This document shows, in pieces, positions 37,674 through 43,683 of a stretch of DNA of 64,000 bases (position 1 is its first letter; each line of letters starts with the position of its first letter). A program made the position numbers and the translations under genes. Source of the DNA: a virus; the UHGV virus genome UHGV-0090252; one strand, given 5' to 3'. The notes beneath the pieces were generated by a model. That model saw only the letters and a list, made by a program, of their open reading frames with translations, made no database searches and had not been told where the DNA came from.

Positions 37674-37952
37674 TCAGTCAAAAGTTACGTTTGTTACTGC
37701 CATTGCAGATTTGCATTTTGCAGGGTCTACAACGTGATAAAGTACACTACAGTTACCTGTGCTGTCTGGTACAGGCTTTACCCATTGCTGCTTTATAGTT
37801 GGCTCCCCTAAGTCTTTGTAAGAGCCATCTGTAAAGTTGTTTACCATCTCAAGTGCAATTGGTTCTGGAACATGGCCACGTATCATGTACATTTCACAAC
37901 CATTACCGCCTTCACTGACTAATGGTAAAATCTCCCACTTCTCTTTAGCCAT
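37674..37952 (-). CDS. hypothetical protein (92 aa)
   Basis: ORF in minus-strand run. Confidence 0.45.
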   Translation of the reverse strand: MAKEKWEILPLVSEGGNGCEMYMIRGHVPEPIALEMVNNFTDGSYKDLGEPTIKQQWVKPVPDSTGNCSVLYHVVDPAKCKSAMAVTNVTFD

Positions 37953-38460
37953 TATAAGTTGCCCTATAAACTGTCTCGAACTTCAACAGGAGAGATATTG
38001 CCAAATCTGTATAGTTGTTGTCAAGCACATCTGGCATATTATTTTTGATATATTTCTCTTGCTCTTCATAGGTCATCTTAGGTGTGCTTAGAAGGTTGTC
38101 CCCTTGCTTCTGGTTATCAAGTTTAGTCTGGATAAACCAGTTTGCACAGTGATGCTCACCACCCTTTGTAACAGGTTTGTGGTGGCCTAATGTAAATGTT
38201 TGCTTACCTGTATACCTGCAAAGATTGTTCAGTGTTGCAATAGTGTTCTTCACAACACACCATTCATACAGGTTATCTATTGTGTAGTGTGGGTAATAAC
38301 GGACAAGTACTCTTTCACGGAAGTTATCACGATTCCAAAGAACCATGTGATTCGAGTTAGAAGGGTCGTATTGGTGGGAGTCAATGAACTCTTGACGTTC
38401 CTCAAAGCTGAGTCTTAGAACTGACATTGCAGCCGAACGTTTCAGGTTTGACAGATACAT
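37945..38460 (-). CDS. hypothetical protein, possible HNH-type endonuclease
   Basis: 171 aa; GHHKPVTKGGEHHCANW resembles an HNH core but lacks the usual Cys pairs. Confidence 0.35.
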   Translation of the reverse strand: MYLSNLKRSAAMSVLRLSFEERQEFIDSHQYDPSNSNHMVLWNRDNFRERVLVRYYPHYTIDNLYEWCVVKNTIATLNNLCRYTGKQTFTLGHHKPVTKGGEHHCANWFIQTKLDNQKQGDNLLSTPKMTYEEQEKYIKNNMPDVLDNNYTDLAISLLLKFETVYRATYNG

Positions 38461-39398: not shown

Positions 39399-39884
39399 TT
39401 ACTCGGCTCTCCACTGACAATCACCTTGCCACCCATACTCTTTTCTCCATAGGTTTTGGTTATCAGAACCACGATATGGCTTAACTGTTGGTTTAGATGA
39501 ATCATACTTACCATCAATCACCACGTCAACATATTTCATCACATCTAGGTGAATTTTTTCGTGTAGTTGAAAACCTGTCCAGAGCCATATAGTCTTCTCT
39601 GGGTAAACAGTTTTAACACGTTTGCATATGTCGGTAACCTCTTGAATATTTCTATCATCCAGAGGTTCTCCACCAAGTATTGACAGCCCACTGACAGCAT
39701 CGTCACCCATTAACTGGATGATTCCGTATAGGTTTGCATAAGTGAACACTTTACCAGCATTAAACTTCCAAGACTCCCTGTTAAAACAGCCTTCACAGTG
39801 ATGTTTACAGCCAGCTACGAAGAGGCTTACACGAACCCCTTCACCATTAGCTGTATCAAATGGTCGAATCTCCATGTAATTCAT
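39399..39884 (-). CDS. nrdG: anaerobic ribonucleotide reductase activating protein (radical SAM)
   Basis: 161 aa; CKHHCEGC radical-SAM cluster motif near N-terminus. Confidence 0.8.
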   Translation of the reverse strand: MNYMEIRPFDTANGEGVRVSLFVAGCKHHCEGCFNRESWKFNAGKVFTYANLYGIIQLMGDDAVSGLSILGGEPLDDRNIQEVTDICKRVKTVYPEKTIWLWTGFQLHEKIHLDVMKYVDVVIDGKYDSSKPTVKPYRGSDNQNLWRKEYGWQGDCQWRAE

Positions 39885-40797: not shown

Positions 40798-41171
40798 ATA
40801 GTTTTACCATTATCACATGTGTAAAGATACTCTACAGAAGTTTGTGGGACAAGTACAGTGGTGTTCCCACTAAGTACACTCACAAAGTAAGTAACCTCAC
40901 GATGTTGATGAGTTTTTACACAATTGTTTGCCTTCATCCGTATCACAGTTTTGTATGAATAGAACACCGCCAAGACACAAAGTGTAATAACTCCAACCAT
41001 CATGGCAAACTCAGGCAAAAAATCTGACTGTATGATGTCTCTAAATCGCATTATTCCAAGAATAAATAAGATTATCAGACATACAATCCCACAAACTGCT
41101 ACATAAAGCCACAAGTCCATAATGTAACTCCAAATAAAAAGGTGATGTAAGCCTATCAAGACCCACATCAC
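40785..41171 (-). CDS. hypothetical membrane protein
   Basis: 128 aa, several hydrophobic segments. Confidence 0.45.
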   Translation of the reverse strand: MMWVLIGLHHLFIWSYIMDLWLYVAVCGIVCLIILFILGIMRFRDIIQSDFLPEFAMMVGVITLCVLAVFYSYKTVIRMKANNCVKTHQHREVTYFVSVLSGNTTVLVPQTSVEYLYTCDNGKTIWWN

Positions 41172-41182
41172 ATTGTCAAGTT

Positions 41183-42130
41183 TTACATAGAAATCCTATC
41201 CTTAATTTCTGCCATCTTAGCGTCATTCATTCGAGACTGGCCTTTAATTTTTGTGAATGATAAGTATCCGCACACCCTGTTAATCACAGAGATATCATGT
41301 GAATGACAAACCTCACATTCTTCAACATCAACCTTTGGTCTGTTACCACAATGTTCACAGATTGATAAGTCAAAGTTAAGTCCCTGATAGAAACCTTTCA
41401 ACATCCCTCTTGTAATACAACTCTTAAGTGCTGATAAGTTTTCTGGGTTAGCCACTCTTACATACTGGATTCTGCCGCCTCTACAGATATGGAAGAAGGG
41501 TTCTTCTAAGTCCTGCTTCTCAAATGGTGTAATATCTGCTGCAACATTCATATGGAAACTGTTTGTAAAGTATTCCTTGTCAGAAACGCCTTTGATAACG
41601 CCAAACATATCTCTGAACTGTTTTAGCTGAGTTCCACAAAGTGATTCTGCTGGAGTGCCATAGACTGCATATAAGAAGCCATCTTCATTTTTAAACTCTT
41701 CAGTCTTCATGTTGATATATTCCAGAACATCATATGCAAAACTACAGCTTCCAACTTCATGAAGTCGTTTACCTTCAGCAAGAACAGATAGCTCATCAAG
41801 CGCAGTAACCCCAAAAGAAGCTGTGAAGGACTTCACGATATCCCAGCCAACCTTGTCAGTAGGTTTCTTATTCCCTTTGTACAGACCACCCTGTGTGAAT
41901 GCAAGAGGGTTAGAACTTGCTGGCATATTAGCAATCATTTCGTAACGTTTCTTGTGGAAGCTGCGAACCATTTCTAGGTACTTATCAAGCTCTTTCCAGA
42001 AATCTAAGCCATTTTCTTTAGAATACTGGTAAATCATTGGTAAGTTCAAAGATACAGCACCAATGTTAGCACGACCTACATAAAACTCTTCACCATATTC
42101 GTTATGGTATGGTGATAAAAATGCTCTACA
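41183..42130 (-). CDS. nrdD: anaerobic ribonucleoside-triphosphate reductase, exon 2 (glycyl-radical domain)
   Basis: frame open upstream of the tracked TTG to codon Cys at 42128-42130; contains NLP motif, glycyl-radical RVCGYL and C-terminal CxxC...CxxC; spliced junction gives ...VISPMG|CRAFLSP... Confidence 0.8.
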   Translation of the reverse strand, partial: CRAFLSPYHNEYGEEFYVGRANIGAVSLNLPMIYQYSKENGLDFWKELDKYLEMVRSFHKKRYEMIANMPASSNPLAFTQGGLYKGNKKPTDKVGWDIVKSFTASFGVTALDELSVLAEGKRLHEVGSCSFAYDVLEYINMKTEEFKNEDGFLYAVYGTPAESLCGTQLKQFRDMFGVIKGVSDKEYFTNSFHMNVAADITPFEKQDLEEPFFHICRGGRIQYVRVANPENLSALKSCITRGMLKGFYQGLNFDLSICEHCGNRPKVDVEECEVCHSHDISVINRVCGYLSFTKIKGQSRMNDAKMAEIKDRISM

Positions 42131-42446
42131 CTTATTGTTCAGGTAAGTTCGCTAAGCTTACCCCGCTTTATTCAAGCTGCTTACTGTCGCCAGTAAGTCC
42201 AGACTATATCTTCTACTTATTTCTAAGTAGCGTACCATTTCGAGTCGCTTGACCCTACACCGCTACATTCATCACGGTTAGTCGTTCGGCATTTAGATGT
42301 ATTCAAACTCATATTCGAAGTTATTTGGCATGTAAGACTCCTATGTTGTATAGTTTCTTACATCGTACATCATTTAGCACAGGATTGTCTACATCTGTAG
42401 AGTTTCCCTGTTTAGGCACGTTTTAGATGAGCTATAGAGCTTGTTA
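42131..42446 (-). mobile_element. group I self-splicing intron (316 nt, no internal ORF) in nrdD
   Basis: exon 1 ends in U, intron ends in G; minus-strand R-like element CGAACGACTAA and S-like element AAGATATAGTC form P7; 7-bp P9-like hairpin CTTACTG/CAGTAAG; spliced product about 714 aa. Confidence 0.8.
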
Positions 42447-43643
42447 ACCCATCGGGGAAATTACCTTACCAGAACGCTCAAAAGCCTCTGCTACAGCACC
42501 ATGTCCAGTTACACTTAAGAAATCTGGATACATAGCTTTAGAGCAACACTCAATAGCTTTTTCAAACAACCTTGCTTGGCATACATCAAGCTTATGTCTC
42601 GTTTCTTCATAGATATACACAAGTTTAGGGAACACAACAGGTTTTTTGCTTTTTCCTTGCCCGTTCATCCTTACGTTAAGGATTGTATTGGCAATCATAA
42701 ACTGAAGGCGGTTATCTTCATTGTGCATATCTGGTTCCAACAGACCAAATGTCAGAGTAGTAAATGCAAAATCACCGCGACTGCAAGGAACAGTGTTAAG
42801 TTTCATTTCAAGAGATTGGAAACCTTGTGTTAACTCATTCTGTAATTGCTCCATTACGTAATTATAGTGTTGCTCTTTAGGGATTCCGTACTCTTCAGCT
42901 TTCTTTGAGTGGTACACTAAAGACTTCTTAGCATACGGTACAAGTACCTTATCAATCTCTGCTAAAGTAAAGCCACCAAATTGCTGTGCAGTTGCTGAAA
43001 GAACTACATCACCAATAACCTGTAAGGCTGACAGCACAGACTTCGGTTCACAGTATTCAATGCCAGACATTTCAAAGCCACCTTTCAGCACTTTACCAAT
43101 GTCAAACAGGCAACAGTTGATACCACCAAAAATTAGGTCTCTTAAATCATGGATATAGATAAACCCTTTTTCAATGGCTTCAAGTTCCTCTGGTGTTAAA
43201 TGGTACTGTTTAAAGATTTCTTTAGTCAGGTAACCACGAATAATTGAGCCTTTTGTAGAAATTAAACTGCTGTCAAAGTTAGCATTCTCTCTGTCGCCTA
43301 AGAAGAGTGTATCTTTGGTCTTCTGGTAGAGTTCATCCCAATTTTGAGCAACTTCTTTACGGTAATTTCTATATGTTGAGTAAGACTCATAAATCTCGTG
43401 ATTGACTTCTGCCAAAGCACCCTCAACAATACTGTGAATATCATTTACTGAAATGAGTAAATTATTCTGCTTAGTGGATTTTACCAGAATCCTCATAAAT
43501 GCTGACTCAAGAGCTTGGGTAACATCTGGTGGTAGTTCTTTATACCCAACCCTATTAGCTGACTTAGTGACTGCTGCTAAAACTTTTTTGATATCTGGTT
43601 CTTCGAGTGAGCCGTTCTTTTTAATAATCTGTACTTTGTTCAT
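42447..43643 (-). CDS. nrdD: anaerobic ribonucleoside-triphosphate reductase, exon 1 (ATP-cone and N-terminal half)
   Basis: 399-aa ORF; the in-frame TAA that ends the track ORF lies at the start of the intron. Confidence 0.8.
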
Positions 43644-43662: not shown

Positions 43663-43683
43663 AAAAAGGTCTCCGAAGAGACC
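43663..43683 (-). terminator. rho-independent terminator
   Basis: GGTCTC-CGAA-GAGACC hairpin with AAAAA on plus strand to the left. Confidence 0.65.

Follow-up and report, generated by a model that had tools for sequence, protein, structure and literature searches.

The 64,000-nt stretch of the virus genome UHGV-0090252 analyzed here (hereafter "the window") derives from a Felixounavirus, i.e., a Felix O1-like myovirus of E. coli and Salmonella, and 2.6 kb around the locus in question are 93-98.5% identical to many such phages. Its nrdD gene, which encodes a class III (anaerobic) ribonucleotide reductase (RNR), is divided into two exons by a spacer of 316 nt (42446..42131, minus strand) that is very probably a splicing-competent group I intron without an open reading frame (ORF). 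We favor this reading because of a covariance-model match, the P1 and P10 pairings with both exons, the terminal G, an exact match to intron-less alleles, and covariation across related phage introns. The same evidence supports a preliminary description of the locus, made from the sequence without database searches, as an ORF-less group I intron splitting nrdD. nrdD, nrdG, and the parts of the intron described below lie on the minus strand.

Exon 1 (43643..42447; 399 codons) covers an ATP-cone and the N-terminal half of the NrdD barrel and ends in ...VISPMG with a GGU codon, while the ORF that contains it (43643..42444) terminates in a TAA (42446..42444) formed by the first three bases of the spacer. 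Exon 2 (42130..41183; 315 codons plus stop) opens with a UGU cysteine codon and encodes the Zn-ribbon cysteines as well as the glycyl-radical motif (..RVCGYLS..). Joined to each other, the exons give 714 codons plus stop with 0 internal stops and the junction ...SPMG^CRAFLSP... (here and below, the caret marks a junction). All coordinates of the preliminary description, which had read nrdD as two ORFs 316 nt apart with the upstream one ending in ...VISPMG, could be verified, and so could the NrdD-like protein of about 714 aa that it had proposed. The joined product matches the Pfam family NRDD with 387 bits (residues 119-712), alongside ATP-cone and Gly_radical, and is colinear with the crystallised NrdD of phage T4 without any gap across the junction (..VISPMGCRAFLSPY.. 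in the window, ..PVSPMGCRSFLSVW.. in T4). By position in this alignment, the first cysteine of exon 2 corresponds to T4 Cys290, which we take to be the active-site cysteine bearing the thiyl radical; this role reportedly goes back to work by Logan et al. in 1999 and Andersson et al. in 2001. The glycine of RVCGYLS is aligned with T4 NrdD position 580. The features of a class III NrdD are thus all found, i.e., a full NRDD domain, the aligned cysteine, the C-terminal glycyl-radical motif, and the activase gene nrdG (39399..39884), whose product, the NrdD-activating enzyme, matches Pfam Fer4_12 (146 bits) and Radical_SAM. Given nrdG, the class III system is otherwise complete in the window.

Most GenBank records of related phages list two separate nrdD coding sequences (CDSs) of 399 aa and 284-288 aa, and the literature knows a functional RNR that is split without an intron, namely in Aeromonas phage Aeh1, where mobE divides NrdA (PMC3653736). 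One could read the window in the same way, as a genuine two-piece nrdD whose halves are translated separately and assemble into active enzyme without splicing, but the reading frame of exon 2 makes this extremely unlikely. According to the preliminary description, the downstream frame is open back to the cysteine codon. It is indeed open there, but it continues seven codons further (RTYLNNK) to an in-frame TAG at 42154..42152, and the position of the junction at the cysteine is fixed by homology and group I rules, not by the frame alone. From this TAG onward, no ATG, GTG or TTG is found until 27 codons past the cysteine, and no Shine-Dalgarno sequence is present there. Because no start-type codon lies between the TAG and codon +27, a separately translated C-terminal piece would miss the residue aligned with T4 Cys290, i.e., the catalytic cysteine, together with the next 26 residues. 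The spacer moreover harbors a complete covarying group I fold of the kind that a passive spacer would not retain.

The covariance-model search that the preliminary description had suggested gave a match to Rfam Intron_gpI (RF00028) at 42477..42180 with 55.1 bits versus a gathering score of 50 and E = 3e-11 for the whole 64-kb window. This is the sole non-tRNA (transfer RNA) match above threshold in the window, and a relaxed Rfam scan found no second group I match there even at E <= 0.1, which is a weak negative for ORF-bearing introns. Among the phage introns compared below, Intron_gpI at its gathering threshold finds only the ORF-less ones and the T4 nrdD intron, whose core precedes its ORF, and it misses the homologous introns with an endonuclease ORF in the P6 loop, including that of T4 td (loci L001, L007, L008, L009, and L010). 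Rfam-based surveys of phage introns therefore under-count the latter.

The boundaries of the intron are fixed by the splice-site rules of group I introns. A comparison with intron-less DNA alone leaves an ambiguity of one base because intron and exon 2 both begin with T, and a terminal G is obtained only with the boundaries given here (42446..42131). With these, the base preceding the spacer is a U and its last base (42131) is a G, both as read in the preliminary description, and the intron opens with a UAA that stops the exon 1 frame. P1 (42426..42453) is a 7-bp hairpin between the internal guide GCUCAUC (42432..42426; intron positions 15-21) and the final 7 nt of exon 1 (GAUGGGU, 42453..42447); a U.G wobble marks the 5' splice site, and this P1 is kept in all four introns that occupy the same site. 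Directly 5' of the P1 guide and within the P1 loop lies the intron strand of P10 (GCUCUAUA, 42433..42440), which together with the opening 8 nt of exon 2 (UGUAGAGC, 42123..42130) forms an 8-bp P10 that is contiguous with the P1 guide.

The remaining helices of a group I core are present as well. P3 combines the strands CGUGCC (42415..42420) and GGUACG (42231..42236), with both-side changes in 5/6 pairs among relatives, and P4 (ACAGGG/UCCUGU) encloses P5 (UCUAC/GUAGA) at 42379..42411. P6 (GC/GC) and P6a (42289..42378) surround a relic of an endonuclease gene, and all six pairs of P6a, formed by GAUGUA (42371..42366) and UACAUC (42301..42296), covary. Both the R-like element CGAACGACTAA and the S-like element AAGATATAGTC of the preliminary description are present, and P7 can form between GACUA (42279..42283), inside the R element CGAACGACUAA, and UAGUC (42202..42206), inside the S element AAGAUAUAGUC; the GACUA strand is invariant in the seven introns compared below. 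P7.1 (ACCG/CGGU) and P7.2 (GGGUC/GACUC) at 42242..42278 are extra hairpins typical of subgroup IA2, and both display compensatory changes. In P8 (CUACUUA/UAAGUAG, 42213..42230), 6/7 pairs have changed on both sides. The 7-bp hairpin that had been likened to P9 (CUUACUG/CAGUAAG) is present and constitutes P9, which is accompanied by P9.1 (GCUU/AAGC) and P9.2 (GGUAAG/CUUACC) at 42142..42197. All helices from P3 on (P3, P4, P5, P6/P6a, P7, P7.1, P7.2, P8, P9, P9.1, and P9.2) are perfectly paired in the window sequence. An unconstrained minimum free energy fold (-80.2 kcal/mol; z = -3.5 versus shuffles) gives the helices from P3 to P9.2 except for the P7 pseudoknot and P9.1, the latter of which appears in the centroid fold. 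Because P7.1 and P7.2 are present and the core is 71-82% identical to those of the T4 td and nrdD introns, we assign the intron by sequence comparison to subgroup IA2.

Related introns were found by BLAST with the intron alone as query, and a comparison set of seven was aligned by MAFFT after excision of their ORFs (the window, EPFV3-03/2025, 1.084.O, F97, T4 td, and two Aeromonas terminase introns). On this plain alignment, RNAalifold predicts P1, P3, P4, P5, P6, P7.1, P7.2, P8, P9, and P9.2, with 40/66 pairs maintained through changes on both sides. When the P7 pseudoknot is added, 95.2% of the cells are paired as opposed to 39-42% with slid partners, and both-side changes are seen in 40/70 pairs as opposed to 4-13 in the slid controls; none of 500 shuffles attains the observed values. 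Covariation backs P3, P4, P5, P6, P8, and P9, and even P10 covaries with the exon, being CUCUAUA/UGUAGAG in the window versus GAUUGGCA/UGCCGAUC in Vibrio phage F97.

Several points weigh against the interpretation of the spacer as a splicing-competent group I intron. The Rfam score is just 5 bits over threshold, and the model misplaces the P1/P2 segment into exon 1 and stops after P9, so that the coordinates of its match (42477..42180) are not the boundaries of the intron. P7 is invariant, which means that the comparison says nothing for or against this helix, and the pair counts are somewhat inflated, with the consensus structure being derived from the same alignment. The set comprises just seven sequences, four of them close to each other in the P7-P7.1 region, and the literature searched holds no experimental evidence of splicing for the window or any Felixounavirus intron. 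Nevertheless, a resemblance to group I introns by mere chance or low-complexity composition, which the score near threshold might suggest, is vanishingly improbable and for practical purposes already refuted by the E-value of 3e-11 together with the strong covariation, by the lack of the spacer to the exact base in 119 related genomes, and by its 71-82% identity to the T4 td and nrdD intron cores.

The intron is polymorphic among close relatives of the window phage. In Felix O1, nrdD is uninterrupted with a codon count equal to that of the joined window exons and the junction ...CCGATGGGT^TGCAGAGC..., and a 72-nt probe across the exon junction has a contiguous match in 119 phage-collection records including Felix O1, which are thus intron-less. 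The intron itself is found at an identity of at least 95% in 94 phage-collection records; both counts include some duplicate GenBank/RefSeq entries. Around 62 records have an HNH gene inside it, and a probe across the junction of the deletion described below matches 32 records of E. coli and Salmonella phages, including EC6, momo, L27, REP5-12, ECOH1, and SPJ41. Differences from Felix O1 number 2/60 in the final 60 nt of exon 1 and 12/60 in the initial 60 nt of exon 2, the latter within the first ca. 55 nt (42076..42130), while most of the remaining exon 2 is ca. 99% identical. They include two amino-acid changes: 10 of the 11 intron-bearing copies compared read PYHNEYG (PYHNEHG in momo), versus PY(F/L)NE(N/D)G in all three intron-less alleles compared. 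The start of exon 2 may therefore be a co-conversion tract or endonuclease-immunity tract as expected for a homing intron. Of the hallmarks of a mobile intron, the locus displays presence/absence polymorphism at one site among close relatives and an altered exon flank, while an intron-encoded homing endonuclease gene is absent from the window copy. Farther upstream, a segment of exon 1 (42564..42923; nrdD CDS nt 721-1080) shares only 68-83% identity with Felix O1, compared to mostly 92-100% elsewhere in nrdD if the junction segment and the final ca. 70 nt are set aside; this pattern suggests a recombination patch unrelated to the intron.

Database annotations of the locus vary. Five of the 32 records matched by the deletion probe annotate a hypothetical protein or an nrdD misc_feature under the probe and most others nothing, and the nrdD halves in the ORF-less genomes examined are annotated as two CDSs or as misc_feature. 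For D1-2 (MN481367.1) and SP4 (MW321605.1), the records give nrdD or its second half as no more than a misc_feature "similar to" reductase, i.e., treat it as a pseudogene. Four unannotated records labeled as Campylobacter phages (MG065668.1 and MG065664.1, named "Campylobacter phage A126" and "A132", as well as MG065674.1 and MG065644.1) contain the ORF-less Felixounavirus nrdD intron (99-100%) or Vequintavirus-like introns and are probably mislabeled or mixed assemblies.

About two thirds of the intron-bearing relatives have an intron of 742 nt with a 465-nt ORF for a 154-aa HNH_3 endonuclease in the P6 loop, and an alignment with those of phages Tribble and Mushroom shows that the window intron equals this HNH-bearing form minus 426 nt in frame (142 codons). 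The deletion turned ATGCCAAA^CTATCAC...GAGCATAA^TAACTTC into ATGCCAAA^TAACTTC, and its junction lies between 42324 and 42323 within the relic of the HNH gene in the P6 loop (42302..42365; intron positions 82-145). What is left of the gene is its ribosome-binding site (GGAG) and a mini-ORF of 12 codons (42293..42331; MPNNFEYEFEYI plus stop), which starts at the former ATG and in which the first 3 codons are fused in frame to the last 9 codons and stop. The statement of the preliminary description that the intron has no homing endonuclease ORF is thus correct for the spacer (no ORF longer than 32 codons and none of endonuclease size), with the qualification that it concerns a derived state in which these remnants persist. 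No HNH paralogue that might serve as a trans-acting endonuclease is found elsewhere in the window. One ORF (37945..38460) that looked HNH-like by eye was rejected for lack of a Pfam HNH match.

With the Felixounavirus HNH protein, the ORFs of Vequintavirus and Vibrio phage introns share 41-50% identity, and their C-termini can be aligned to the relic in the window. Because these outgroup introns have homologous ORFs to whose C-termini the relic aligns, the ORF-bearing state is ancestral and the ORF-less form of the window a deletion derivative. The opposite order, insertion of an endonuclease gene into an originally ORF-less intron, was rejected given that both ends of the gene persist in the ORF-less copy (ribosome-binding site, ATG, and first codons as well as the final nine codons with the stop) and that the homologous ORFs of the outgroup introns are of full length. 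The last HNH codons that were retained (UAC AUC UAA) form the 3' strand of P6a, which plausibly explains where viable deletions stop. In addition, the AU of what was the endonuclease start codon, together with the six bases before it, is base-paired in an 8-bp hairpin (AUGUAAGA/UCUUACAU, 42330..42363), one pair of which is disrupted in several copies. T4 intron endonucleases are subject to translational control, and by analogy this hairpin may, speculatively, have held back HNH translation.

In the homing life-cycle model, introns are expected to begin degenerating by losing their endonuclease gene, and the spacer could accordingly be a decaying relic that no longer splices, leaving nrdD a pseudogene with aerobic NrdAB supplying deoxynucleoside triphosphates. 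The "similar to" annotation of the gene or its second half in D1-2 and SP4 would fit such a scenario, as would the mutation of the relic ATG to ATA in phage momo. Eleven Felixounavirus copies, eight of them ORF-less and three HNH-bearing, bear on this question. Outside the deletion, the window intron is 100% identical, base for base, to the HNH-bearing intron of Tribble. Variable sites amount to 17/64 in the relic but to 8/252 in the ribozyme core (Fisher p = 7e-8), compared to 27/240 in the flanking coding exon (p = 7e-4 versus the core), so that the core of the eight ORF-less copies is more conserved than the adjoining coding exons. The changes in the core sit in loops or joining regions or switch between G.U and G-C (two helix changes, positions 151 and 213) and thereby preserve the pairs. 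This pattern of conservation argues for a functional ribozyme with a neutral relic inside. Furthermore, both exons are open in the window and intact CDSs in 6/7 other ORF-less genomes examined (in SP4, the second half is the misc_feature noted above), the ORF-less form is found in 32 records of E. coli and Salmonella phages, and nrdG, grx, and nrdB are all intact near the supposed pseudogene. Taken together, we regard a non-splicing relic as very unlikely and an ORF-less intron that still splices as the far better account.

The deletion occurs on two intron haplotypes, one Tribble-like (window, momo, and REP8) and one BPS17W1-like (SPJ41, S19cd, SP4, and DE7). We explain this by introns having recombined with each other, the alternative being that the identical deletion recurred. 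Shared polymorphisms are also mosaic across the deletion-bearing copies (window 42302..42365 versus L002 and L014-L020).

Comparison with known introns places the window copy within a wider family. The HNH-bearing nrdD introns of other Felixounavirus phages (vB_Eco_Tribble, vB_EcoM_Alf5, Mushroom, UAB_Phi87, and BPS17W1) are the same intron at the same site and differ by their length of 742 nt with the 154-aa HNH_3 ORF in the P6 loop, of which the window lacks 426 nt. Vequintavirus EPFV3-03/2025 and the Vibrio phages 1.084.O and F97 have nrdD introns with a homologous IA2 core at the identical point (..MG^CRSF..). These, in contrast, measure 762-819 nt and have kept the ORF, whose coding sequence extends over P6', J6/7, and P7 and closes with ...EMPND plus stop, and many of their helices differ from those of the window by compensatory changes. 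In Vibrio phage F97 (locus L007), a second HNH-containing insertion (224..1384) is located upstream of the intron at the cysteine site, and nrdD is also broken between adjacent CDSs (3303/3304), i.e., into at least four pieces.

Among the T4 introns, that of td (IA2, with I-TevI) shares P7.1 and P7.2, the GGGU^UAA arrangement with an in-frame stop at the intron start, and the P6-loop ORF site with the window intron, to which it is 71% identical over 164 nt of the 3' half; it differs by its other host gene, by a GIY-YIG endonuclease, and by an extra P2 hairpin, which the window intron does not have. The T4 nrdD (sunY) intron with I-TevII, which the preliminary description had cited as a precedent, resides in the same gene but at a different site. 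It lies ca. 110 codons upstream near T4 codon 179/180 (..AFQAYE^YEVNTL..), whereas the window intron is inserted at the equivalent of Cys290, and we thus rejected the idea that both occupy the same position. This T4 intron spans 1033 nt (a joined span of 2851 nt minus the 606-codon CDS), has an annotated GIY-YIG endonuclease, scores 105 bits with Rfam, and matches the window core with 77% over 111 nt and 82% over 62 nt. In sequence, the window intron is about equally close to the cores of T4 td and T4 nrdD. The large-subunit terminase introns of the Aeromonas Plateaulakevirus phages 2L372D and phiA047 are likewise compact, ORF-less, and of the IA2 type, with similar size and a near-identical P7-P7.1 region, but have another host gene and a longer P9 region. 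Finally, Mosigvirus TH58 (MT446423.1, locus L013) contains a stretch of 111 nt (1501..1611) that matches two separate parts of the window intron (query 15-192) with 87.5% identity. This locus yields no Rfam match at the gathering score and may represent a fragment or a very compact relative.

From the boundaries, fold, homology, loss of the endonuclease gene, and conservation computed here, we infer that splicing would proceed as follows. The last seven bases of exon 1 and the internal guide, whose pairing is present in the sequence, would form P1 with the U.G at the splice site, and a free guanosine bound in the P7 pocket would then attack this 5' splice site according to the established group I mechanism. 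Subsequently, the first eight bases of exon 2 and the adjacent guide bases would form P10 while G42131 enters the G site; pairing and G are seen in the sequence, and their use is presumed. Ligation would give ...CCG AUG GGU^UGU AGA GCA... (...CCGAUGGGU^UGUAGAGCA...) and restore a 714-aa NrdD with the catalytic cysteine as first codon of exon 2. Translation of unspliced RNA would presumably halt at the UAA that opens the intron, an arrangement (GGGU^UAA) as in T4 td. We propose that an HNH-carrying mobile intron lost its endonuclease gene from the P6 loop by the in-frame deletion of 426 nt, and that the window copy splices but would have no autonomous homing, moving only by ordinary recombination or with the help of a co-infecting relative's endonuclease.

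Beyond the intron, terminator-like hairpins flank nrdD on both sides, one with a 13-bp stem and T-run straight after the stop codon (41142..41171, minus strand) and one (43668..43683; GGTCTC..GAGACC plus T-run) just upstream of the ribosome-binding site that is annotated as a terminator in phage Tribble. A promoter scan of the nrdD region found 7 sites versus 8.3 expected. Elsewhere, the window contains a minus-strand cluster of ca. 23 tRNA genes (3781..8669) typical for Felixounavirus, two of which have long variable arms (3861..3950 and 6626..6713); matches resembling transfer-messenger RNA and tRNA-Sec in this cluster are weak and all under threshold.

Group I introns in phage nrd genes are well established (PMC2988022; PMC3653736). 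According to its genome paper, Felix O1 has no introns (PMC3185647), which agrees with its uninterrupted nrdD, and later papers on some Felix O1-like phages described their nrdD as "split" and "interrupted by a homing endonuclease" without terming the insertion an intron (PMC4837284; PMC3728262). The paper on SPJ41 mentions "two introns" among predicted noncoding RNAs without detail. No paper in the literature searched describes the Felixounavirus nrdD insertion as a group I intron, and it is thus a new, or at least not formally described, case of a well-known intron type, i.e., real but ordinary. It leaves the current understanding of group I introns unchanged and is modestly interesting for an insertion at the catalytic cysteine codon that is common to four phage groups, for the clean in-frame loss of the endonuclease, and for the three-state polymorphism within one genus. 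On the practical side, it corrects the annotation of ca. 94 Felixounavirus records in which nrdD appears as a pair of genes, is described as "interrupted by a homing endonuclease", or is given as a misc_feature in the manner of a pseudogene. Recognizing the intron would mean that these phages, which are candidates for therapy and biocontrol, encode an intact anaerobic RNR.

It is tempting to ask whether the ORF-less intron is itself under selection. As an "immunity allele", it would occupy the homing site and, with its co-converted flank, protect nrdD from cleavage by the HNH enzyme of relatives infecting the same cell, while sparing the phage the cost of an endonuclease gene of its own. We consider this rather doubtful, but if true, the presence of the deletion on at least two haplotypes and in 32 records would reflect a recombination-driven spread favored by selection, against a backdrop of phages competing with each other by means of intron endonucleases. 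In a weaker variant of this idea, the amount of NrdD made may depend, via splicing efficiency, on the state of translation or growth in the host. In any case, the genus offers a natural series of three states, i.e., no intron, intron with HNH gene, and intron without it, and together with the homologues at the same codon in Vequintavirus and Vibrio phages this makes for a convenient system to study the gain, degeneration, and loss of homing introns as well as endonuclease-mediated competition between phages.

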